IMG/VR virus record: IMGVR_UViG_3300045988_046639
Span: 1-37,589 of that record
From: a virus
Strand: one strand, 5' to 3'
DNA length: 37,589 bases
A program made the translations under genes and the position numbers. The stretch's first letter is position 1. The number at the start of each line of letters is the position of its first letter. Positions 4,595 to 37,589 of the stretch are shown in pieces. The notes below the pieces were generated by a model, which ran no database searches, was not told the origin of the DNA, and saw only the letters and a list, made by a program, of their open reading frames with translations.

Positions 4595-7170
4595 TGAACA
4601 ACACCTCCATATCCATATCTTGCTTGCATACGTAACATTCTAGCAATTTCATCCGGACTTTGAACTTTATTGTAGAAGTTGATAGTCTGTCCATTGTTAT
4701 TTGTCGTTACGCTTGGCATGATTTGAGCCATATCTTTAGCTACGGCACGAATCCACGCTTTATTTTTTTCTAAAGGTACGACGGCTTCTGCACCATTACC
4801 TTCTAACAAGCCAATTTGACCACGTTTTAATACACCACCACGTTCTAATCTTGGAATCTTTCCAATGTGAACACCTGGAATCTTATTGATGATTCCGATT
4901 GCACCGTTAATGCCACCGATAACACCATTTACCATTCCTTTTACACTAGAGACTAATGAACCTACTGCTCCTTCAATTCCACTAAATACACCACTTACAA
5001 ATCCTTTTAAACCGCTCCATGAATTCTGTATTCCTTGTAGAACATTTGAAATTTTATTTCCTACATTGTCCATCACACCTTGAACTTTAGACCAAATGCC
5101 ATTAAATACATCAGAAACAGTACTCTTAACATTATTGAAATATTTATTAATATTATCAATAACACCTTGAACCTTGTCTCTTACCTTGTTCATGGAATCT
5201 TGAATTTTACTCCAAATTTTGTTTATGATATCCGAAACCGTCTTAAATAAATTGCTTACGAACCCAATAATCGCAGTAACTACTTCGCTAACCTTACTCC
5301 AAATATTCTGAGCAACCGTTAATATTACAGACCAAATATTCGCTACGATTGTAGCTACAATTTGAACAATAGGCATGATAAATCCTAGTATTGTTGCAAT
5401 TGCAGTTCCTACATACGTCACAACCATAGTTATAAATGAAATGATTCCACTTACCACACTTCCAACAACTTGAAGGATAGATGTTATTACAGGAATCATG
5501 CCGATAACTGTTTGAATAATCTTCTTAATGATTGCTAGAATTGGTGGTCCTACAACGCTAAGAATCTTTTGAGCTTGGTTAACAACATTTTGAATTGCGT
5601 TACCAATTTTACCTAAGATTTCTTTTGCGATAGGTTCAAGCGCAACTTTCATTTCATCAATAGCTTTTCTAACTTCATCAAACGCAGGAGCTAACACTTC
5701 GGAAACTTGATTTGTTAATTCTGTAATTCCACTTGTATCAATCTTACTTAATACGCTTGAAATTACATCACCAACTTTAGCAAATCCTTGTTGAATGCCT
5801 TGAATTGCTACTGTAATCAATCCTACAATGCCTGCAAGAATAGGGGTAATAAGTTCGCCTATTGGAGTAAATGAATCAAGAAATGCGCGTCCTAAGCCAC
5901 TTAAAGCGTTCTTTAAGCCACCATTTGCGATATCTTTAACTTTATCCATTGCCCCTTCTACATCTTTATATTTATTCCCTACTGTTGTTAAGGACTGAAT
6001 GAATCCGGCGTTGAAATCTTCTCCCATTGTACCGAATGCTTTAGCCATCTTTTGACGCTTTTCTTCTTCGTTAGTTGTAGTTCGTATATCTTCAACAATA
6101 GCGTTAATTACTTCTTTTTCTGTCGCTCCACCTTCTTGCCAAGCTTTAAACATATCCTGTGTCTTATCGTTAAACATATCTAGTGAATCGCTAACAGTTC
6201 CATCTGCAATTCGGTTTGTAACTTCGTTGATTGCGTCATTTACTTTATCAAGGTTATAAGCTCCACCGTCTAAACCATTTTGCATTAATTGGAAATATTC
6301 CTTTGCCGAATATCCTGCTTGCTTAAATTTACCGGAGTATTCCGAAATGTTGTCACCTAACTCATCTGATTTGTTTAAACCATTCTGAGCACCTGTAGCC
6401 ATAAGGTCGAAAGCTTCTTGAGAAGTGATTCCGAACTGCTTCATTAATTGTTGAGCGCCTCTAAGAGTTTCATTCTCATCCATATCGAATGTATCTCTTA
6501 AAGTTAATAAATCCTCGGTCACGTTCTTTAGGTCAACATCACTTATGCCTTGCATTTGTTGCTTGACTCTGCCCATCATATCGGCAACATCTGAAACATC
6601 TTCACCGAAATTATTAGACCAAACATCACGAGCAATGTTTTTAAATTTGCTCATTTCATTACTTGAAGCACCTGTCTGAGCTTGGAATTTAGCCATAGCG
6701 TCATCTAATTCAGTAGCTTGGTTAACACCTGTTTTAATCGCTAATGCCATTCCACCGATAGCTCCTGCTACGGCAGTAACGCCTACAACACCTCCAACTC
6801 CTAACCCTGTTAAAGTTTCAGTGATTGCAGTAGCTTCCGGACTAATATTCTGAATCTTTCCTAATAGTCCATCAAATCCACCTTGAATTGATTCTAAGGC
6901 ACTGTTTCCTACTTGTTTAAATACATCAAATTTAGAACCTGTTTCTTGCGTTTCTGTTTGTGTATTCTTTTGCTCTTCGTTTAATTCTTTAAGTTTATCT
7001 TTAATTTTTGGTGGTGCTTTTGAACCATCAGAACCTAGCTTGTCGATTGCTTTTGAAGTATCTTTGATAGCATTTGTTGCTTTACTTGATACCTTGCTAA
7101 CCGATTCAATACCATTTTCAAGACCACTTGTATCTAGCCTTGTATCGAACTTTAATGTTCCATCTGCTAT
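4591..7170 (-). CDS. Tape measure protein (about 860 aa)
   Basis: Long helical and TM-rich protein in the expected position. The frame is open to 7170 and the first canonical start is 140 codons in. ATA at 7170 follows the GGAGGTGG SD and gives (M)ADGTLKFDTRLDTSGLENG... Confidence 0.9.
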   Translation of the reverse strand: MADGTLKFDTRLDTSGLENGIESVSKVSSKATNAIKDTSKAIDKLGSDGSKAPPKIKDKLKELNEEQKNTQTETQETGSKFDVFKQVGNSALESIQGGFDGLLGKIQNISPEATAITETLTGLGVGGVVGVTAVAGAIGGMALAIKTGVNQATELDDAMAKFQAQTGASSNEMSKFKNIARDVWSNNFGEDVSDVADMMGRVKQQMQGISDVDLKNVTEDLLTLRDTFDMDENETLRGAQQLMKQFGITSQEAFDLMATGAQNGLNKSDELGDNISEYSGKFKQAGYSAKEYFQLMQNGLDGGAYNLDKVNDAINEVTNRIADGTVSDSLDMFNDKTQDMFKAWQEGGATEKEVINAIVEDIRTTTNEEEKRQKMAKAFGTMGEDFNAGFIQSLTTVGNKYKDVEGAMDKVKDIANGGLKNALSGLGRAFLDSFTPIGELITPILAGIVGLITVAIQGIQQGFAKVGDVISSVLSKIDTSGITELTNQVSEVLAPAFDEVRKAIDEMKVALEPIAKEILGKIGNAIQNVVNQAQKILSVVGPPILAIIKKIIQTVIGMIPVITSILQVVGSVVSGIISFITMVVTYVGTAIATILGFIMPIVQIVATIVANIWSVILTVAQNIWSKVSEVVTAIIGFVSNLFKTVSDIINKIWSKIQDSMNKVRDKVQGVIDNINKYFNNVKSTVSDVFNGIWSKVQGVMDNVGNKISNVLQGIQNSWSGLKGFVSGVFSGIEGAVGSLVSSVKGMVNGVIGGINGAIGIINKIPGVHIGKIPRLERGGVLKRGQIGLLEGNGAEAVVPLEKNKAWIRAVAKDMAQIMPSVTTNNNGQTINFYNKVQSPDEIARMLRMQARYGYGGVVQ

Positions 7171-7190
7171 TCAATGTGCCACCTCCTTTT

Positions 7191-7754
7191 CTAAACATCA
7201 AAATATGAATCGAATTCATCTTTCATTTCTTGTTCCTCTAATGTTAATTCGATTGGGAAAGACCACGCTTCTTTTGCTCGTTGGTACGCTTTATCTTGTG
7301 TATCATTCTTTGAAGGCTTTTCATACCCACGAACACTCTTTGCATATCCCCACAATGTAGAATCACTAACAACATTATTCGCTAGTGCTAAGAACTTGTG
7401 CCAATGCATATTGCACTCTGTTAAATCAATGCCGTAAAGTTGCATAAAAGCCGAATAAATATATTCCCCATCTTGTACATAGTCCAATGTTTTAACGCCT
7501 GTAGAATCACTTCTAGGTGTACTAGAAGGGTTATATAAGAATCGTTCTAGTTCATTTAAAATATGTTGGTCTATGATAGGTGGTTCATCTACGAACAAAT
7601 AAGAGCAATCTATTTCATCAATAACATGATTATTGAATCTTTCAAATTCTTCATAAAACCTTATCCACAATCGAAAATCTGTATTTAATAAAATAGGCTC
7701 GCCATCTAGCGACTGAATGCTATTTGGCAAGCCTTTTATGCGTAAATCAATCAT
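7191..7754 (-). CDS. Gp15-like tail assembly protein
   Basis: MIDLRIKGLPNSI...NTDFRLWIRF pattern, position just upstream of the TMP, and an ATGA overlap with the upstream gene. Confidence 0.6.
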   Translation of the reverse strand: MIDLRIKGLPNSIQSLDGEPILLNTDFRLWIRFYEEFERFNNHVIDEIDCSYLFVDEPPIIDQHILNELERFLYNPSSTPRSDSTGVKTLDYVQDGEYIYSAFMQLYGIDLTECNMHWHKFLALANNVVSDSTLWGYAKSVRGYEKPSKNDTQDKAYQRAKEAWSFPIELTLEEQEMKDEFDSYFDV

Positions 7755-8113
7755 TTCTTCGCCGAAATGTTAGAAACAGTTTTGCTTGCGTCAAGAAATT
7801 GCTTCATTCCATTTGTTCCGAATGTTGTTTTTAATTTCTTTTCTAACTGTTCAACCGTTTTCTTTGAATATTCATCATCAATCAAATTGACAATATACAA
7901 TACTTCCATCAAATCAACTTGTTCAAAGTCTGCACTTCCTAGCATGCTTTCAATTTGTTCATCTGTTAATACTGTTTTCAGATAGTCGAATTTTGCTCGA
8001 TATGCTTCTTCATGCGTTGAGTGAAATGCATTACAAGCGTCCTCTGCTTTTAAAACTTCAATTGTTTTTGGTGGGATTTCGTACTGTTTCCCTTCATACG
8101 TGATTCTATTCAT
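7751..8113 (-). CDS. Tail assembly chaperone-like protein
   Basis: Position between the major tail protein and Gp15-like/TMP genes. ATG lies 5 nt after GAAGAGGT. Confidence 0.45.
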   Translation of the reverse strand: MNRITYEGKQYEIPPKTIEVLKAEDACNAFHSTHEEAYRAKFDYLKTVLTDEQIESMLGSADFEQVDLMEVLYIVNLIDDEYSKKTVEQLEKKLKTTFGTNGMKQFLDASKTVSNISAKK

Positions 8114-11769: not shown

Positions 11770-11847
11770 TTTGCCCTCCTAAAGTCTTTTATAAACCGAA
11801 TCTTCTCCGGTATGGTTTTGGCTAACTATATTTTAGCTTGAATAATA

Positions 11848-11864
11848 GCTCACATTGTGAGCGT
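11848..11864. repeat. Copy 2 of the hairpin 15-mer GCTCACATTGTGAGC
   Basis: The identical 15-mer also occurs at 20421-20435. This copy lies between the MuF-like and scaffold genes. Confidence 0.8.
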
Positions 11865-11865
11865 T

Positions 11866-13050
11866 TTAGCCGATTCTAAGCCTATCGTTGTGAACTCTAT
11901 CTCCCATTTCAGAACTAAAAGCTTTATACGTTGCATTTGCGTGTTTTAGCTTGATTTTGGCTTCTGTACTGCCTAACCCTTGATTGTCCAATAAGATTAT
12001 TTTCCTCTTTAATGCTCTGATATTTCTTTCTAGTTCTCTTTGATACTGCCTAGCTTCATATCCTTTATATTTTTTCCCTTGGAATGTGAAAGGTTTTGTA
12101 TCAATATTCTTTAACTGCTCTTTTGTGTAGGCATACGGCATATCAATATCCCATACAGGTTGAGCAAAGTGGCTACATCCATAGTCTTTTTCTTCTCCAT
12201 GCGTCAACTGAAACAAGCTAGGATATAGTTTCCCTTGTGTATCATATCGCTTCCCTTGCCACTTCTTATGAGTTGGTCTTGCATTTGCGTGAGCGTCAAA
12301 CTCAAATACAGTAACTCCCATATCTTTTGCACATTTATTGTTAATTTCTTGTGATGATTCTTTTTCTGCGTACTGCATTTGTTGTCTTACCCATACATCC
12401 ACATTTCTTTTAACGCCTGTATCATATTCAACAATCTTTACGCCACTGTCTGCTAGTTTAGAAATAGCTTTTCTACAAGAATCATCAATTGTGCATTTGC
12501 CACCTACTACATTTTTAACTTCTTCTTGAACTACCTTTGTAAAGAATACCGGTAGTTTATCTTTACCGATTGCATACGTGTTAGCACTTGTCTTGATATA
12601 TTTCTTCCAACGTTTTGCAGTTTCCTTTTGTGGATTCACATATGCAATATGTTTTGCAAGGCTTCCATCTATCTTTTTTTTAGTTGCTTCTTGAATTAAT
12701 TCTAATGTTCCATTCTTATTTTCTTCAAAATCCTTTTTTGATTCCTTGATTACATCTTTTTTTAGGCTTTTTGATTCTTTTTTTGTGAATTTACGCAAAT
12801 CCACGAGCGATTTTGCCAATATCTCATTAAATTTTGTGCTTTCTTCGGTGGCTTTTTCTAAAACTTCACGAATTTTATTAGACACGAATATCATCATTCC
12901 TAATTCAAACACACTAGCACGCTTTACACTTTTTCTTTCTCTTTCTTCAAGTTTTCTTCTTTTTTCAATCTGCTTTTGTAGGCGTTCTTGCTTCCTTTGC
13001 TCTTGCCGTTTTTTTCGTTCCTGTTCCCTTTGTTCTTCTTCACTTAACAT
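11866..13050 (-). CDS. Minor head / head morphogenesis protein (SPP1 gp7 / Mu F-like)
   Basis: C-terminal FEFDAHANARPTHKKWQGKRYD motif. ATG follows GGAGGG. Confidence 0.7.
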   Translation of the reverse strand: MLSEEEQREQERKKRQEQRKQERLQKQIEKRRKLEERERKSVKRASVFELGMMIFVSNKIREVLEKATEESTKFNEILAKSLVDLRKFTKKESKSLKKDVIKESKKDFEENKNGTLELIQEATKKKIDGSLAKHIAYVNPQKETAKRWKKYIKTSANTYAIGKDKLPVFFTKVVQEEVKNVVGGKCTIDDSCRKAISKLADSGVKIVEYDTGVKRNVDVWVRQQMQYAEKESSQEINNKCAKDMGVTVFEFDAHANARPTHKKWQGKRYDTQGKLYPSLFQLTHGEEKDYGCSHFAQPVWDIDMPYAYTKEQLKNIDTKPFTFQGKKYKGYEARQYQRELERNIRALKRKIILLDNQGLGSTEAKIKLKHANATYKAFSSEMGDRVHNDRLRIG

Positions 13051-15961: not shown

Positions 15962-16767
15962 GATTTCACCTTGTAAGTCCAATCTTTGCCTACTTCACCT
16001 TCATCAACTTCATACGCCCAATCTGCTAGAATCTCATGCCCATTCTCATCTACTAGTGTTCCATCTTCTGTTAATAAGATTGTAGTGAAATGGTTCTCCA
16101 TAATCATCTTTTCAATATTTGAAATTCTATTTGATAACTTTCCTGCCGTATTTGCGTCTAACGTATCTTTTACAGTTTCAAACCAATCATTGAACTCTGT
16201 TCTATTTGCGTTCATTTCAGATTCGTTCTGAGCCTTAATTTCTTTGAATAACTCAGTAACTTGAGTGAATAAATCCAACGATTGTACGCTCTTAATTGCA
16301 CTTGTAACTGCTCCACAACGTGTAGAATCTAATCTTGTATCAGTAATATCTGAGCCTTTAACTTCGCTTGCATTGCCTGTTATGGTGACCGTAGCTAATA
16401 CTAAATCGTAAATAGAATCACTTCTTGTGATTCCATCATTGATATCACTTGCTACTAAGGTAATGTTTCTGTATGCGTCATTATCATTCAATCTAAGAAT
16501 AATATTGTAGCTTTTAGTTGCGCTATTCTTTTCTAATGTGATGGTTTCGTCATCTTTCTGCCAATAGAACGCTCCGTTAATATTTGCTCGTCCTGCCTTA
16601 ACTGTAAGCGTTAAGCCTTGAGCTTTCTCAACTCTTAAATGGTCTGAACTAGAATCATCTACGAACACACCATTTGTAAAATAACTTGAGAACAATCTTC
16701 TGAAAGCGTCATATAATACTAATCTATCGCCATTTCTCGAAACGAATGGAAAATATGTAGTTGCTAT
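15958..16767 (-). CDS. Fibre/structural protein (YFPF...GDR N-terminal family)
   Basis: ATA at 16767 overlaps the portal stop (ATAG), 9 nt after GAGGGGGA. It gives (M)ATTYFPFVSRNGDRLVLYDAFRRLFSSYFTNGVF. Confidence 0.65.
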   Translation of the reverse strand: MATTYFPFVSRNGDRLVLYDAFRRLFSSYFTNGVFVDDSSSDHLRVEKAQGLTLTVKAGRANINGAFYWQKDDETITLEKNSATKSYNIILRLNDNDAYRNITLVASDINDGITRSDSIYDLVLATVTITGNASEVKGSDITDTRLDSTRCGAVTSAIKSVQSLDLFTQVTELFKEIKAQNESEMNANRTEFNDWFETVKDTLDANTAGKLSNRISNIEKMIMENHFTTILLTEDGTLVDENGHEILADWAYEVDEGEVGKDWTYKVKS

Positions 16768-18167
16768 TCTTCATCATCCCCCTCTCCATCATCTTGAATT
16801 TCTTCATTTAATAACTCCGTTGCTTCTTCTTCAGTAAATCCGTATTGCTTCATAAAGTACATAATCTTTAATCTTGGAATATCAAATGTTAGTGCGTCAT
16901 TTCTTAACGCTTGTGCAGTGCTTTGCTTATCCTCGATATATGTATCATCATAATCAATAGCAATGTCTAATGAATTGATATTAAGCTTTCTGCCTTGTGT
17001 TAATTCATAAAAGTATGCTATTGCTTGAATGATATCTTGAATATATGCAGTAGATTCTTTACGTTGTGAGTTAACTTCCTTCATTGCGTCTTGATTCTCA
17101 CCGATATATTCTGTAGCCGTCACAATTCTTCCACTTTCAAATGTGTATTTCTTTGTACCGAATCCAAACATCATTGATAATATGCTCAATGCAGTTTCTA
17201 ACGATTGGACAACTTCTTGTGTTCTTACTGTTGGATTGTACTCTTGCCATAAAGCTTTTTCTTCCGGTAGCTTATCCCTACCTAACTGAACAAAGATATT
17301 CTTTAATTGTGGGTTCTGTTTCACTTTTCCGTTCTTGTCTTTTTGCATTAATGCTTCATTTACAAGAACGATTTTATCTGACTTTAACAAATCACGATTC
17401 CACATTGTCATTGTCAAATCAATTGTTTTTAGTGGAGCGATTGCGCTCCAAATCTTTGGTAAGCCGTACCCTTGCATTTGTAAGTTGTTTACCTTTGCGT
17501 TTCTCATGATTGCAAACGGCTTAACCACATCTAATTGAACAATCTGAGCACGCTCTTTTATTTCTTCACCTGTGTCTTTGAAGTAATGTGTTTCTGCAAT
17601 ATATCTTTCGTCTTGCCCTTTTAAGAACATGACCATCACATATACTTTTTTTAGTTTCTCATAATTTACTCCAACAAAAGCTACCTCAACGATTTCATCA
17701 TTGATAACAGTCAATGGAAGGATATTCATTGAATCACAATAGTTGATTCTGATTTCTCCTCCACTGAATGTACCATCTTCATAAATCTCGGCATTCGATA
17801 CCGTTACATAAGCTCCTACCGTACCATTTGCAGACATTTGCTCAACTTGCTTCCTATACATAACATCAAATCTATTCTTCGTTAGAATGTCTGAAATAAT
17901 GTCATTTGTTGTACTGTCCTCAGTGGCGTTTATATCTAGGATTTCAATAAGGTTTGCGTCATCCTCGCATAAACGCTTTGCAAAGTCTGTCTTGTCTAAT
18001 GTGTATTCCTCGTTGTTCAAGGTATATGCCGTATGAAATTCTGTTTCGGTATTTGTATACCACTTATTACACAATTCAATAATCTCAATTGCGTTTGTAT
18101 CTACATAATACCCTCTTTCGTTTAGGTAATTCTGAAACCACGGTCTACGTGTGTTAGATGTTTCTAT
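16764..18167 (-). CDS. Portal protein
   Basis: Position after TerL, size, and acidic C-terminus. The frame opens after the TerL TAA, and ATA at 18167 lies 6 nt after AAGGAGG. The ORF-track TTG at 18074 is 31 codons in. Confidence 0.8.
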   Translation of the reverse strand: METSNTRRPWFQNYLNERGYYVDTNAIEIIELCNKWYTNTETEFHTAYTLNNEEYTLDKTDFAKRLCEDDANLIEILDINATEDSTTNDIISDILTKNRFDVMYRKQVEQMSANGTVGAYVTVSNAEIYEDGTFSGGEIRINYCDSMNILPLTVINDEIVEVAFVGVNYEKLKKVYVMVMFLKGQDERYIAETHYFKDTGEEIKERAQIVQLDVVKPFAIMRNAKVNNLQMQGYGLPKIWSAIAPLKTIDLTMTMWNRDLLKSDKIVLVNEALMQKDKNGKVKQNPQLKNIFVQLGRDKLPEEKALWQEYNPTVRTQEVVQSLETALSILSMMFGFGTKKYTFESGRIVTATEYIGENQDAMKEVNSQRKESTAYIQDIIQAIAYFYELTQGRKLNINSLDIAIDYDDTYIEDKQSTAQALRNDALTFDIPRLKIMYFMKQYGFTEEEATELLNEEIQDDGEGDDEE

Positions 18168-18170
18168 TTT

Positions 18171-19502
18171 TTACCTCCTTAAGTCAATATATCCACTATG
18201 GGTTATAAATGTATAGCAGAACGAATCCCAATCATCATTGATATTGTTTACGTTCTCATCTTTTGGAATGTCTTTCTTTTCATCCCATACAAGTTCGCTC
18301 AATGCGTTTATTAAATTCTTACAATGTTCTTCTATCTTTAGCCTACCTGTAACAAGTAAGCTATCAACTGTTATAGGACGGTCTGTAAGCTCATTCTTCT
18401 TTACCGGTGCAATTATACTTCCGTCTAATCCTTCTGCGTAAAAATAAGCTCTAAGCGTGTTTATCAACGTATTAGAAGCACTGTCCGGAAATATCCATTC
18501 AACATATCCGTAACATTCAATACAACGCTTATAGAATCTTACAAATGCTTTGCAAAACTTTGTTGCGTCTATTGCATTTGACTTTGCCATGTCCCCTTCA
18601 TCAAGTGCCCACATATAATCCCAATCGCTCGTGAATCCTGTTAAGTGCCATGAGTATTTCGAACCATTGTCTCCAAAGTCAACGCCTATGATTAAATGAC
18701 TGAACCTTTTTCCTGTTTCATTCATCTTTTCTTTTAGACTCTGATATTTAAATAGGTAAGGTTTGCAGTCATTAGCAAAATAAGGGAATACAAGTCCTTC
18801 GGCTTCTTCCCTCTGTCCTTTTATATCTCTTTTGTAGTAAACGCTATTCTTATCGTATGATTTTAAAACCGTTCTAATCTGCTCATCACTTAAAGAATAA
18901 TTGTCAACTAAGGTGGTATACCCATAGTTGTAACCATATGTAGAATCTTTATTCTGTTGCTCCTCATGATATTTCAAGAAATCTGTGTAATACCAATGAT
19001 TCTTGCCTTTGGGGTTTAAATCATGAAATATCTTTCGATTGCTTGACGCTATCGTTCTATCCATCACTTCTTGTAAAAATTCAATGCAACAAAGGTTTGC
19101 TTCTGTAACGTAAGCCATTCCGTAAGAATAACCATGTATTGCATTCTCTGAGCCTTTCTTAGCACCACCGGCAAAGAATACAACCTTTTCTCCAACTTTT
19201 GTATTGATGTAGTAGCAGTCTTTACCTTCATACTTCCCTACTTTGAATCTGTTAGCAAAATAGTTCTGTAATCCGTATCCGTTACAATCTCCAATATTTA
19301 CACGTGCAGATGATGTATCTGTTCCTGCTATCAAATGGAATTTATCCGGATGTGTTTCTAGTGCAATACAGAAAGCGTATGTGTTGAGTACGTTCTTTCC
19401 TCCACGCTTACCTTAACCTCCCTCAAGTACATTCAACCAACAATCAAATGTTTTCTTGAGGTAAGCCAACTGCTTTTGATTAAAAGGCGCAGGCTTATTC
19501 AT
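18171..19502 (-). CDS. terL: Terminase large subunit, interrupted by an in-frame TAA at 19413..19415 in the P-loop
   Basis: ATG at 19502 follows GGTGGTGG. The sequence reads MNKPAPFNQKQLAYLKKTFDCWLNVLEGG-TAA-GKRGGKNVLNTYAF... in one frame, continuing into ORF 18171..19334. Confidence 0.8.
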
Positions 19503-19520
19503 CAAACCACCACCTTTCTT

Positions 19521-19910
19521 TTATTCAAAATCTTCAATTCTTCTTTCTTTTGCTACATCTGTAATCATAGCCTTATTAATTGCATTTACTTCTGAAGCGT
19601 CAAAATGTGTTTCTACCTTATCTGCTTGACCTAGGAATTGTTTGCCTAAGAAAATAGCCATTGCAGGACTCTTTGAAGCTAGTTTAAATTGCACTCTTCG
19701 TAACGAAATTCTTCCTTGTGCGCCGAACCTTTTTAAACATTCGGAGAAATCAGTTCCATATGTACGTTTACACCATTTTGATAGTGTCTTATCTGTCGTG
19801 TTAAAAAAATAACATACTTCTGCTTGCGTGCATTGAATAGCTAACAATTTTTCAAATTCTTCTTTGTCGAAATCCTTGTTAGGTCTTCCAACTTTTCCAT
19901 TCGCTATTAT
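19521..19910 (-). CDS. terS: Terminase small subunit
   Basis: HTH-like N-terminus. The frame opens after a TAG. Tandem ATA ATA at 19910/19907 lie 4-7 nt after AAAGGGGA and give (M)ANGKVGRPNKDFDKEEFEKLLAIQCTQAEV. The first canonical start is TTG at 19847. Confidence 0.75.
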   Translation of the reverse strand: MIANGKVGRPNKDFDKEEFEKLLAIQCTQAEVCYFFNTTDKTLSKWCKRTYGTDFSECLKRFGAQGRISLRRVQFKLASKSPAMAIFLGKQFLGQADKVETHFDASEVNAINKAMITDVAKERRIEDFE

Positions 19911-20320: not shown

Positions 20321-20396
20321 TGGTTGCAGGAGAAGGAATTGCACCGTTCGACCTCTAGCTAATAAGACTAGTGAGCTACTACTGCTCTATCCTGCT
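20321..20396 (-). tRNA. tRNA-like gene with anticodon UAU (reads AUA) and initiator-like acceptor and D arms; non-canonical T arm
   Basis: Manual cloverleaf: AGCAGGA UA GAGC AGUAGUA GCUC A CUAGU CUUAUUA GCUAG AGGUC GAA(C)GG UGCAAUU CCUUC UCCUGCA ACCA. It shows U8, A14, G18, A21, U33, G53:C61 and an encoded CCA. Confidence 0.6.
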
Positions 20397-20411
20397 AAAA
20401 CAATTATTACA

Positions 20412-20436
20412 TGAAAAAATGCTCACATTGTGAGCA
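20412..20436 (-). terminator. Rho-independent terminator after the late regulator gene
   Basis: The minus strand reads TGCTCAC-aat-GTGAGCA followed by TTTTTT. It overlaps the stop codon at 20423. Confidence 0.7.
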
Positions 20437-20749
20437 CTTTCTTTAAGTTTTTATTTATTTTTCTTGGAATTTCTTCTCTTGCATAACCTACAATATTAGA
20501 TGTCTTTTCTGCACTGAATCCCTTTATATATCTATACTCAATCATTGTTCGAGTTGTATCATCAAGTTGGCTTAATTTTTCTTTTACATAGTTCATTCTT
20601 CTTGCATAATCTGCATGAGCCAAGAATAGCTCGGCTTTTAATGGATAAATTGCTTCATCCCTTTGTAGCTCGGCTATCTTTTGCTCATAGTATGTATAAG
20701 ATTGGCATTCACACAAGAAGTGTCTCTTAATATCTTCATATGTGCTCAT
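20423..20749 (-). CDS. Late-gene transcriptional activator (sigma-r4-like, ArpU/RinA-type position)
   Basis: DDTTRTMIEYRYIKGFSAEKTSNIVGYAREEIPRKINKNLKK is an HTH pattern. It is the last gene before the packaging module. Confidence 0.55.
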   Translation of the reverse strand: MSTYEDIKRHFLCECQSYTYYEQKIAELQRDEAIYPLKAELFLAHADYARRMNYVKEKLSQLDDTTRTMIEYRYIKGFSAEKTSNIVGYAREEIPRKINKNLKKVLTM

Positions 20750-33413: not shown

Positions 33414-34511
33414 CTATAATTTGTCTTTCTCCATAAATTTTACAATGCCTTTATCTGCTTGAGGTAACCAATGAGCGTATACTGAAAGCACTGTATCAAG
33501 GTTGTCACCTAACCTTTTAGCTATATCGTATACTGAGAAATTCACTGTTCCATCTGTTACCATATTATTAATCATGTAGCTTGCACATGAGTGCCTTAAA
33601 TCGTGTATTCTGATAATAGGTATTTGCTCATTTCGTGGTAGCTTGATATTTGTTTTCTTAATAGTCTCATTCAGTTCTCTTCTAACTGAGCTACGATAAA
33701 AAGGTACTGTCATACCAAATATATAATCATTATCGTTTGCGTTCATATTCTCTTTAAAAGCTTTATATTCATCAGATAGAAATTGTGGCATTGTGATTAA
33801 TCTATAACTGTTATTTGTTTTAGGCGTTGTAGCTTTTCTTAGCATGTCTGCCCATGTTTTATGTATGTTGATGATATTATTGGTTAAATCAATATCTTTC
33901 CATTGTAAAGCCAATGTCTCACCTATTCTCATGCCCATGTAGAATTGATTCATAAACAATAAATGATATACCGGTTTATTTTCATTTGCTATAAATTTAT
34001 TGAACTGCTCCACCGTCCAATACATCATGTCTTTCTTTTTTTCGTTGGGGTCTTTCTTTAAATCAATATTATCGCACGGATTCGTTTGAATATAGCCTTG
34101 TCTTACTGCGTAATTCAATACTGCTTTAAATTTCGTATAATAGTTAAGTACTGAATTAAATGACATTGATTGCATTAATTTATTAATGAACTGTTCTATA
34201 TTGTTAGATGTAAGCTTTTTAACCTCGCATTCACCTAGTTCATCTTCCCAATATTTTAAAATCGCTTTCTGCGTCAAGTATGAGCTTTCTTTAATTCTCT
34301 TTTCCGAGTATACTTGATATTGATAAGATAACTCTTTAAATGTGATGGTTGCGTTTGGTTCTTTTAAATTTTCTTTGAATAGAATCTCGGCTTTTATAGC
34401 ATCCTTCTTTTTTTCAAACCCACGCTTCTTATATTGCTTGGTCTTTCCATTCAATTTATATGAACCGTAATACATCCATTTGCCTGTTGCTTCATCTTTC
34501 TTGACTGCCAT
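33414..34511 (-). CDS. int: Tyrosine integrase
   Basis: RIGETLALQW, HDLRHSCAS and LSVYAHW catalytic-region motifs. ATG at 34511 follows AGAGGTG. Confidence 0.9.
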   Translation of the reverse strand: MAVKKDEATGKWMYYGSYKLNGKTKQYKKRGFEKKKDAIKAEILFKENLKEPNATITFKELSYQYQVYSEKRIKESSYLTQKAILKYWEDELGECEVKKLTSNNIEQFINKLMQSMSFNSVLNYYTKFKAVLNYAVRQGYIQTNPCDNIDLKKDPNEKKKDMMYWTVEQFNKFIANENKPVYHLLFMNQFYMGMRIGETLALQWKDIDLTNNIINIHKTWADMLRKATTPKTNNSYRLITMPQFLSDEYKAFKENMNANDNDYIFGMTVPFYRSSVRRELNETIKKTNIKLPRNEQIPIIRIHDLRHSCASYMINNMVTDGTVNFSVYDIAKRLGDNLDTVLSVYAHWLPQADKGIVKFMEKDKL

Positions 34512-34580
34512 TTCTCGCACCTCTTTTTTTATCATCATACACAAGAAAAAGGATAAAAAAAAGGCATAATTCATGTAAGA

Positions 34581-34751
34581 ATATGCCAAAAATATGCCAA
34601 TGTTTCTATATATGCTTTATATATAGGATTTTATTTAATATACACAGTTTAAAGAATAATGTTTCCATGTGTTGTTGTGTATTATCTCGTGTCGCTACAT
34701 GCCTTTTTATGATGATATTTTTCATTTAAAATATGCCAAAAAATATGCCAA
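34581..34751. repeat. Two pairs of ATATGCCAA direct repeats (putative attP arm-type sites)
   Basis: Copies at 34581-34589 and 34592-34600, and at 34731-34739 and 34743-34751. Confidence 0.55.
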
Positions 34752-34779
34752 TAAAAAAGCGTACTTCATTTGTACGCTT
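34751..34779 (-). terminator. Rho-independent terminator
   Basis: The minus strand reads AAGCGTAC-aaatgaa-GTACGCTT followed by TTTTAT. Confidence 0.7.
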
Positions 34780-34957: not shown

Positions 34958-34993
34958 TTCTTGTTTCCTCCTGTGTACCTTAAGTACATATAT

Positions 34994-35022
34994 AGTATAG
35001 CATACATGTATATACGTGTAAA
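34994..35022 (-). promoter_or_regulatory. Promoter P1: TTTACA, 17-nt spacer, TATACT
   Basis: The -35 element is at 35022..35017 and the -10 at 34999..34994. It sits inside a 45-bp repeat shared with 36133-36177. Confidence 0.6.
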
Positions 35023-35042
35023 GAACTTTTAAAGAAAACAGA

Positions 35043-36091: not shown

Positions 36092-36140
36092 GACCATCCT
36101 CCTTTCCTTTAATTCCTTGCCTTTATCTGACCACATATAT

Positions 36141-36169
36141 AGTATAACATACACGTATATACTTGTAAA
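36141..36169 (-). promoter_or_regulatory. Promoter P2: TTTACA, 17-nt spacer, TATACT
   Basis: The -35 element is at 36169..36164 and the -10 at 36146..36141. It is a near-identical copy of P1. Confidence 0.6.
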
Positions 36170-36182
36170 GAACTTTTTTAGG

Positions 36183-36212
36183 AAAATAAAAAAAGCCCTG
36201 TATAAACAGAGC
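36183..36212 (-). terminator. Rho-independent terminator
   Basis: The minus strand reads GCTCTG-tttata-CAGGGC followed by TTTTTTTATTTT. Confidence 0.7.
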
Positions 36213-37172: not shown

Positions 37173-37589
37173 TCACTGATATACAGAGAACATTTCTCTT
37201 AATTTATCTCTGACCATTTCTCTTTCTTCTTGAAAGTCGCTAGACGTTTTCATTTCCTCTAAGATTCCATACATAGCATTCAAAAAAGCTTCTAACTCAC
37301 GAATAGAATTTCGCTTATCTATTTCATTGTTATCTTTTCGATATTCTTTTTTTGCTTCTATATATTTTCTGAAATGGCTATTCATCAATGCGATATTGTC
37401 ATCAATTTCTGTTCCTTCAATATTTGTATCATTTGTTCTTAATGCATTTATAGCCGTTCTTCCATCACTCATAGCTAGTATTGTATCAATGTCTTTGATA
37501 TTATCTAAAGCTTGGCTCATGACTTTAAAATCTAAATCATTGTATCCTCTTTCTAGTCCTCTCATTGCTTCCGTTAAGAGGTCTAGATT
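37173..37589 (-). CDS. Hypothetical helical protein (about 145 aa after circularisation)
   Basis: The ORF runs off the window end. The true ATG is at 76..74 on the other side of the 55-bp overlap. Confidence 0.6.
   Translation of the reverse strand, partial: NLDLLTEAMRGLERGYNDLDFKVMSQALDNIKDIDTILAMSDGRTAINALRTNDTNIEGTEIDDNIALMNSHFRKYIEAKKEYRKDNNEIDKRNSIRELEAFLNAMYGILEEMKTSSDFQEEREMVRDKLREMFSVYQ

Follow-up and report, generated by a model that had tools for sequence, protein, structure and literature searches.

The stretch of DNA analysed here, positions 1 to 37,589 of the IMG/VR virus record IMGVR_UViG_3300045988_046639 (hereafter the window, at its full length of 37,589 nucleotides), carries on its minus strand a gene for the large terminase subunit, TerL, which is interrupted by an in-frame TAA stop codon in the Walker A motif (P-loop). 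The window closes as a 37,534-bp circle through a perfect 55-nt terminal direct repeat (1-55 = 37535-37589), and the whole contig is a complete temperate siphovirus genome. It is gene-dense and encodes an integrase (33414-34589), replication genes, Erf, SSB, a methyltransferase, TerS, TerL, portal, a major head protein, a tape measure, tail proteins and an endolysin. TerL was identified by matches to PHROG 2 (E=1e-31) and to the Pfam families Terminase_3 and Terminase_6N; its start codon is ATG 19502-19500, with a Shine-Dalgarno (SD)-like sequence, aaaggtggtgg, upstream. The features of the packaging locus are as follows, with take-off and landing given as putative assignments:

19521..19847, minus strand: TerS, the small terminase subunit, 108 amino acids, ending in TAA at 19523-19521 (PHROG 606, E=3.5e-8)
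19503..19520, minus strand: deletion scar of a homing endonuclease gene, aAGAAAGGTGGTGGTTTGa, identical to the 3' end of a 179-amino-acid gene in contigs L025-L027
19416..19502, minus strand: first TerL segment, ATG and 28 codons (MNKPAPFNQKQLAYLKKTFDCWLNVLEGG), the cassette-borne N-terminus
19421..19461, minus strand: predicted 5' stem-loop of 17 bp, CCUCAAG-(aaa)-ACAUUUGAUU-guu-GGUUGAAUGU-a-CUUGAGG, its 3' end lying 2 nt before the take-off codon
19416..19424, minus strand: SD-like GAGGGAGGT, read from the letters, overlapping the codons that would occupy the E and P sites at take-off
19416..19418, minus strand: candidate take-off codon GGT (Gly29), GGY in 9 of 9 allele types
19413..19415, minus strand: in-frame stop TAA after 29 sense codons, in the A site at the proposed take-off
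19410-19415, minus strand: 6-nt coding gap (TAA + GGT), missing from intact homologues
19410..19412, minus strand: candidate landing codon GGT; across the nine allele types this triplet is GGT or GGC in seven, with one case each of GGA and AGC
18171..19409, minus strand: second TerL segment, resuming at AAG 19409-19407, 412 codons and a stop (KRGGKNVLNTY...IDLRR*)
16764-18074: portal, downstream of TerL

The local minus-strand sequence, CTT GAG GGA GGT TAA GGT AAG CGT GGA GGA AAG AAC, is exactly as recorded in the initial annotation, which had proposed that peptidyl-tRNA might hop over the stop between the flanking GGT codons with help from the SD-like GGGAGG, and had named a 6-bp insertion, read-through, gene decay and assembly error as other options. 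After the TAA, the frame stays open to the stop at 18171 (reading G KRGGKNVLNTYAF...), and the second segment holds the ATPase and nuclease domains as well as the remainder of Walker A. The interruption is placed inside the P-loop because Walker A of a solved TerL structure (PDB 5oea), GS|IRAGKT, aligns over GG|KRGGKN of the window. Re-initiation after the stop was considered and rejected: the downstream frame has no ATG, GTG or TTG ahead of Walker A, and the first such codon, TTG at 19334, would delete the P-loop.

The nearest intact homologue, P0001, is 98% identical, 444 amino acids long and represents an 827-member cluster; it reads LEGGKRGGKN unbroken, as do P0002-P0006 from the same protein collection search. 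The window thus has six extra bases; skipping them gives the homologous protein exactly, and alignment with these closest homologues bears out the suggestion that TAAGGT is an insertion. At the DNA level, uninterrupted relatives (L003-L019) encode LEGGKRGGKN without the additional 5-8 nt; in 14 IMG/VR relatives and in one Logan contig the sequence is TTA GAA GGT GGN AAR, free of any insert, the codon equivalent to the take-off codon being GGN in this group (GGY in 7 of 15). A blastn search of phage GenBank with TerL gave no match.

Removal of the gap produces an open 441-codon open reading frame (ORF) in 7 of 7 window-clade alleles tested, and the spliced TerL comes to 441-444 codons across lineages with a complete 5' end. 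Downstream of the gap, all lineages but L098 have 412-429 uninterrupted codons, and no further stops or frameshifts are present in TerL of the interrupted alleles. Pairwise Nei-Gojobori estimates for these alleles give dS of 0.32-0.45 and a ratio of non-synonymous to synonymous rates (dN/dS) of 0.022-0.050, indistinguishable from the mean dN/dS of 0.034 among intact alleles. The TerL gene is under purifying selection. Two deviations that had been read as signs of decay, the Walker A ending GKN (19386-19409 in the window) and the Walker B-like YVTEA/YITEA (19095-19109), are conserved clade-wide in hundreds of sequences; they are clade traits and presumably functional. As a separate observation, proteins P0007-P0120 (e.g. 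P0007, P0030) have a C-terminal nuclease half near-identical to that of the window (18171-18800), joined near residue 235 (EAEGLVFPYF) to an N-terminal ATPase half unrelated to the window's and bearing a canonical Walker A, AEGAVRSGKT.

The interruption is not confined to the window. At least 21 contigs from many unrelated projects carry it: at least 11 in the same clade (the window, L024, L001, L002, L020-L023 and L025-L027) and 10 in other clades (L098-L106 and L143), where TerL is 41-53% identical and the same codon junction, 29/30, is affected. The latter fall into at least five deep lineages whose TerLs are 41-59% identical in pairwise comparison. The allele of the window itself recurs in an independent Logan assembly (L024, SRR1761699). 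The metagenome scan pattern required AATGTNYTN upstream and would miss divergent clades. The nine allele types are:

Window, L024: take-off GGT, stop TAA, gap TAAGGT, landing GGT, step +6, resuming at AAG
L023, L025-27: take-off GGT, stop TAG, gap TAGGT, landing GGT, step +5, resuming at AAG
L001, L002, L020-22: take-off GGT, stop TAG, gap TAGGC, landing GGC, step +5, resuming at AAG
L103, L098, L143: take-off GGT, stop TAG, gap TAGGT, landing GGT, step +5, resuming at AAA
L099, L102, L104: take-off GGT, stop TAG, gap TAGGC, landing GGC, step +5, resuming at AAG
L100: take-off GGT, stop TAA, gap TAAGGGT, landing GGT, step +7, resuming at AAA
L101: take-off GGT, stop TAA, gap TAACGGA, landing GGA, step +7, resuming at AAA
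L105: take-off GGC, stop TGA, gap TGACGGGC, landing GGC, step +8, resuming at AAG
L106: take-off GGC, stop TGA, gap TGAGC, landing AGC, step +5, resuming at AAA

Steps of +5, +6, +7 and +8 thus occur at one codon junction and represent all three frame relationships; the downstream ORF is in frame only in the window-type allele and out of frame in the +5, +7 and +8 alleles, and only one base separates TAAGGT from TAGGT in the window clade. Two features recur: all nine allele types have a stop (TAA, TAG or TGA) right after the take-off codon, and eight of the nine have a Gly codon just ahead of the resuming AAR. The take-off/landing pairs of seven allele types (GGT/GGT, GGT/GGC or GGC/GGC) would be readable by one tRNA. 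Removing the gap gives one common product, equal to GGKRGGKN of uninterrupted homologues, and because steps of +5 to +8 all occur and only gap removal yields this product, the outcome is independent of frame. Contig L149 (~663-800) carries, at nearly the same place, one extra C between two Walker A Gly codons (GAA GGA C GGG AAA AGA) with no adjoining stop; sequencing error, +1 frameshifting or a different type of immunity indel might account for it.

We suggest that the TAA is probably part of a 6-nt coding gap that is bypassed by a short programmed stop-hop, and that one such mechanism would explain every allele. From the observed anatomy of the locus, allelic series, purifying selection and linkage to an endonuclease gene (described below), we infer a hop, its efficiency and the roles of its helpers, as well as a cleavage site and an immunity function. 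With UAA filling the A site, peptidyl-tRNA-Gly (GCC anticodon) would be paired to GGU 19418-19416 in the P site; its anticodon would unpair, the mRNA would slide by 6 nt (5-8 nt across alleles), and the same tRNA would re-pair at the next GGU, 19412-19410. Decoding would then resume at AAG to give a normal 441-amino-acid TerL with an intact Walker A, LEGG-KRGGKN, and the hop would be recognisable by a tryptic junction peptide, TFDCWLNVLEGGK, free of gap-encoded residues. The comparative evidence favours the GGT-to-GGT hop put forward initially, including a part for the SD-like element.

Likely helpers are a slow-to-decode stop, pairing of the SD-like GGAGGU with the anti-SD and, in the window lineage, a stem-loop re-zipping behind the ribosome. 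All interrupted alleles carry SD-like GAGGGNGGY or GAAGGAGGC, whose GGAGG/GGTGG core would stand 3-6 nt upstream of the landing codon after the putative hop (3-4 nt for GGAGG in the window); uninterrupted relatives mostly have GAAGGTGGN at this position. The predicted stem-loop of the window has a minimum free energy z-score of -3.46, compared with -0.84 in uninterrupted L004, and its folding energy is -15 to -16 kcal/mol in 6 of 6 interrupted alleles vs -1.7 to -4.5 in 15 uninterrupted ones. Eight of the 11 lineage differences fall in the stem and stabilise it, any single reversion costing 2.2-5.4 kcal/mol; the stem uses the rare Leu codon CTC, and in a synonymous-recoding null only 0.15% of sequences were equally stable (p=0.0015). 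No compensatory pairs were found in the hairpin within the interrupted clade, where the sequences are too similar for covariation. Between the apical helix and the take-off codon lie 10 nt, and the basal 7 bp might close again once ~6 nt of mRNA have emerged from the ribosome.

The origin of the insert is suggested by the gene that adjoins it in related phages. In L025, L026 and L027, a 179-amino-acid gene lies exactly between TerS and TerL, its TGA overlapping the TerL ATG. The product has NUMOD4 (1.4e-13) and HNH_3 (7.7e-10) domains, matches an HNH homing endonuclease, PDB 1u3e (E=3.4e-17), which we take to be I-HmuI, and has PHROG matches 59, 959 and 1492 (HNH endonuclease); we predict it to be an I-HmuI-like NUMOD4/HNH homing endonuclease. 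Searches by tblastn near TerL in other clades showed the same arrangement, so that an endonuclease gene is found directly upstream of an interrupted TerL, with its stop overlapping the TerL ATG, in L025-27, L098, L099 and L102-L105. The window, L022, L101 and L143 retain remnants or scars of this gene, and L100 has a residual copy of the TerL 5' end only. Endonuclease relatives 47-57% identical adjoin TerLs of 41-53% identity. Among 94 newly surveyed parsable loci, eight were interrupted, six of them with an adjacent endonuclease gene and two with a C-terminal remnant, compared with none of 81 uninterrupted loci with enough upstream sequence in other clades and none of the 15 uninterrupted loci of the window clade.

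Alignment of 22 loci shows that the interrupted alleles of the window clade have a ~115-nt haplotype in common, flanked on both sides by sequence common to uninterrupted phages. It begins with a 26-nt insert after the TerS stop that supplies the SD (aaaggtggtgg) and the ATG, continues through ~12 fixed, mostly synonymous substitutions in codons 1-29 of TerL (e.g. CTT GAG GGA GGT vs TTA GAA GGT GGN), and ends in the gap. In uninterrupted relatives, TerL starts at a TTG overlapping the TerS stop. The last 18 nt of the window's 26-nt insert match the 3' end of the endonuclease gene, which identifies the insert as a deletion scar; the 18-nt segment, missing from 15 of 15 uninterrupted relatives, now acts as the predicted SD (AAAGGTGGTGG) for TerL. 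The scar of L022 differs, being a deletion between GAAAG repeats. Two different scars imply two or more losses of the endonuclease gene, each of which left the TerL gap in place. In L022 (reverse strand) this deletion also joins ATG-AAA-G of the endonuclease gene, in frame with TerL, to GT-GGT-GGT-TTG-ATG and could extend the TerL N-terminus by MKGGGL.

The window clade hence offers three states, with the endonuclease present (L025-27), deleted (two scars) or cleanly absent, and a presence/absence pattern is repeated in two other clades. In L143, 17 codons of the recipient's TerL survive ahead of a remnant, NGKYYGYHFKRGW*, which is followed by a second TerL N-terminus ending in the gap; the cassette therefore carries its own N-terminus. 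The interruption is thus the 3' edge of a mobile cassette made up of the endonuclease gene and 29 cassette-borne TerL codons, and by its distribution the arrangement seems both old and widespread. A packaging-associated HNH protein of the HK97 gp74 type was ruled out as an identity for this gene by its presence/absence polymorphism, as it is missing from the window and from all uninterrupted relatives (15 + 81); the domain architecture is likewise that of I-HmuI-type homing enzymes. Two further HNH-like genes were seen inside TerL: one on the reverse strand of L098 (~7048-7838), between residues ~341 and 331 with the TerL pieces overlapping by ~11 amino acids, and one in L034 (809-1324), between residues ~122 and 124. 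Introns, inteins or split genes are all conceivable here, and TerL resembles a hotspot for homing elements.

This cassette context goes beyond what was recognised initially and gives the insert an origin and a probable purpose, target-site immunity. By analogy with known homing systems and from its position, the gap most likely destroys the endonuclease target in conserved Walker A coding DNA, protecting carrier genomes; the putative target would be the uninterrupted sequence containing TTAGAAGGTGGNAAGCGTGGAGG. The co-inherited tract ends sharply on its 3' side with the gap, as would suit a boundary of cleavage and co-conversion, and the immunity gap would be retained after deletion of the endonuclease gene, as in the window. 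On balance we also lean towards a broader reading, in which an old and widespread cassette family of gut/anaerobe-type phages combines an I-HmuI-like endonuclease with a 5-8 nt immunity insert in TerL Walker A and a Gly-to-Gly hop over a stop.

Several points weigh against the stop-hop. Landing would not be fully cognate in two allele types, L101 (GGT->GGA) and L106 (GGC->AGC), and the Gly codon before AAR could be kept for protein reasons if the gap were translated. The SD-like GAGGGNGG or GGAGG found in all alleles is partly dictated by the encoded E-G-G, and the wider DNA patterns used for other clades required GAGGG or GAAGG, so that the sample is biased on SD-likeness. The hairpin is not significant in other clades (z -1.8 to +0.3) and so is no general requirement; it was rejected as a general signal and is at most a lineage-specific enhancer. 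The N-terminal cassette is far less diverged than the TerL body, and part of the dN/dS signal could stem from intact genes, imported by recombination. Synthetic stop-hops in E. coli are low-level, and sufficiency of the hop for an essential gene is for this reason an assumption. A host search by DNA pattern scan and protein scan of 185k species genomes gave no match, which leaves the tRNA-Gly and release-factor background out of the comparison. Our confidence in the hop is good but well short of certainty because of the two imperfect landings (GGA, AGC) and because it is read from sequence.

The gap might instead be translated, by UAA read-through in the window, a -1 frameshift in the +5 and +8 alleles and a +1 frameshift in the +7 alleles, with two or three extra Walker A residues tolerated. 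In principle a single read-through or +/-1 shift would suffice to rescue any allele, and the residue before the lysine would stay Gly, or Ser in L106, a residue also present at that place in 5oea. A stop in the A site with an upstream SD also stimulates +1 frameshifting, as in prfB. We nevertheless regard this as unlikely. Read-through, one of the options raised initially, cannot be the common mechanism because sister alleles are out of frame, and three mechanisms would have to operate at one site, with the one-base TAAGGT/TAGGT indel switching between them without loss of function. Canonical slippery heptamers are lacking, each lineage would gain different residues (XG, RL, WL, RLT, KG, NG), and Walker A does not vary in length in roughly 100 uninterrupted relatives examined. 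In the terminase of Streptomyces phage Hau3, moreover, mass spectrometry (MS) revealed bypass and not frameshifting (PMC10732093).

It is less probable still that the interrupted TerL is a null allele, kept by homing drive, lysogeny or complementation from co-infecting intact relatives and refreshed by recombination. Such a cassette would be selfish, its flanks recombine freely with intact lineages, the phage is temperate, and the evidence for the hop comes from sequence comparison. However, the interruption persists across TerL lineages 41-59% identical with ORFs intact on both sides each time, the sole exception, L098, having a separate endonuclease insertion; dN/dS is low throughout (0.02-0.05); the stop, take-off and landing features are conserved while gap length varies; the gap was kept after at least two independent losses of the endonuclease, that is, without drive; and complete circular genomes were assembled. 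The same evidence speaks against an inactivated or decaying gene in a defective prophage, an option raised initially. Restoration at the DNA level, by slipped-strand deletion between short repeats (AGGT..AGGT) giving an intact TerL in a subpopulation in a phase-variation-like manner, seems very improbable: alleles A and B do have short direct repeats on either side of the gap (AGGTTAAGGT, AGGTTAGGT), but repeats of 3-4 nt give very low deletion rates, the gaps of L105 and L106 lack them, and revertants would sweep, yet IMG/VR holds no uninterrupted allele with the cassette haplotype (GAGGGAGGT AAGCGTGG). That the TAA is an assembly or sequencing artefact, or is sense through a reassigned code or a suppressor tRNA, is next to negligible, since one window alone could not have settled this but the same and related interruptions recur in independent assemblies from many projects, most alleles are out of frame and beyond such rescue, ARAGORN found no tRNA genes in the window, and its ORFs close normally under the standard bacterial code.

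The proposed stop-hop shares individual properties with several known recoding systems. The +1 frameshift of prfB, which encodes release factor 2 (RF2), likewise has a stop in the A site and an upstream SD-like sequence near the P-site codon; that shift, which is autoregulatory and involves no mobile element, moves to an overlapping codon (CUU U) and cannot account for steps of +5, +6 and +8. The byp elements of Magnusiomyces mitochondria are also short inserts in essential genes that are skipped in translation, and differ in being GC-rich mobile inserts of 27-55 nt, mitochondrial, with no endonuclease partner and no stop-hop geometry. Closest in geometry are synthetic stop-hops of +5 and +6 (Weiss, Dunn, Atkins, Gesteland 1987; O'Connor 1989), which were engineered in E. 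coli, had low efficiency and lacked stimulators, while the hop proposed here would be natural, conserved and in an essential gene. A 2016 recoding review knew stop-hops only from synthetic constructs, with no natural occurrence.

Among natural cases in large terminases, the nearest parallel is that of Streptomyces phage Hau3 and a prophage, whose genes are candidates for bypassing (Smith et al. 2013), shown for Hau3 by MS of a UAA-substituted cassette in E. coli (PMC10732093). As here, short frame-disrupting inserts (10 or 7 nt) missing from relatives lie in a large terminase, take-off is on Gly (GWG in Hau3), decoding resumes at AAG, and a 5' stem-loop and an internal SD are proposed. The trigger in Hau3 is a rare sense codon, UUA, proposed as a sensor of the host tRNA state, in contrast to the natural stop found here; Hau3 has two sites, three genes are known, the TerL family and host phylum differ, and the available part of the Hau3 text reports no link to a homing endonuclease.

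For programmed bypassing, the single well-established model is T4 gene 60 with its homologues, and together with MobA it offers the nearest parallel to the system as a whole. There too, an HNH-family endonuclease gene (MobA) lies directly upstream of an interrupted essential gene, the cassette brings an N-terminal coding segment with a non-coding insert right after it, a Gly take-off codon is followed by a stop, and the landing codon is readable by the same tRNA (here in seven of nine allele types). An SD-like element 5' of the landing site and a 5' stem-loop ~9-10 nt before take-off (9 nt in gene 60; here in the window lineage) are further likenesses, and gene 60 homologues have GGU/GGC take-off/landing pairs that follow the same wobble logic. 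A 2022 survey describes MobA with gene 60 as a mobile cassette protected from self-nicking by the bypass insert and not by nearby polymorphisms, and MobA as often lost while the bypass is kept, much as the endonuclease gene is here; the survey calls this cassette unique. The systems differ in gap length (50 nt in T4 vs 5-8 nt here, with no take-off stem-loop inside the gap), in target (topoisomerase vs TerL Walker A) and in layout, as the endonuclease gene described here is intergenic, between TerS and TerL, and the interrupted gene is not split in two. The I-HmuI-like enzyme (NUMOD4 + HNH_3) is treated as being of independent origin without direct comparison to MobA. Hosts appear to be of gut Firmicutes type, as against gamma-proteobacteria for T4, and bypass and immunity are proposed here from comparative data. 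In literature on terminase bypass, homing endonucleases and recoding, we found no prior description of a TerL stop-hop/endonuclease cassette; only the Hau3 and gene 60 papers and reviews came up.

Some other features of the window deserve mention. Upstream of the packaging module, a 179-amino-acid ORF at 20957-21496 matches PHROG 28936 (E=3.5e-49), has no assigned function and is not a homing endonuclease. A 47-nt element containing the palindrome GCTCACATTGTGAGC occurs twice (11821-11867 and 20394-20440), one copy just upstream of a regulator-like gene (20423-20749) and the other upstream of the head gene block, and may be an operator or terminator. Direct repeats near the integrase and lysis region, at 34986-35038 / 36133-36185 (53 nt, 89% identity) and 34570-34601 / 34721-34752 (32 nt, with a TATGCCAA motif), may be related to att sites or regulation. 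Finally, ~440 nt between the tape-measure and upstream tail genes (6750-7190) have no long minus-strand ORF and may hold a frameshifted extension of a tail assembly chaperone.

If our interpretation is correct, the TerL interruption would be the first natural stop-hop and would represent a second, independently evolved alliance of an endonuclease with bypassing after T4 gene 60/MobA. It would provide a natural series of gap lengths (+5 to +8), with all three stops and several landing codons, and, at 5-8 nt, a minimal natural system for dissecting take-off, sliding and landing. Gene callers would mis-annotate an essential gene as truncated, and members of 387 and 366 amino acids, belonging to contigs L025, L026 and L027, are already present in the 827-member P0001 cluster. 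Target immunity towards homing endonucleases in terminase genes would become directly testable, and the coupling of endonuclease and bypass would be a recurrent solution for placing an immunity insert in an essential, length-intolerant motif.

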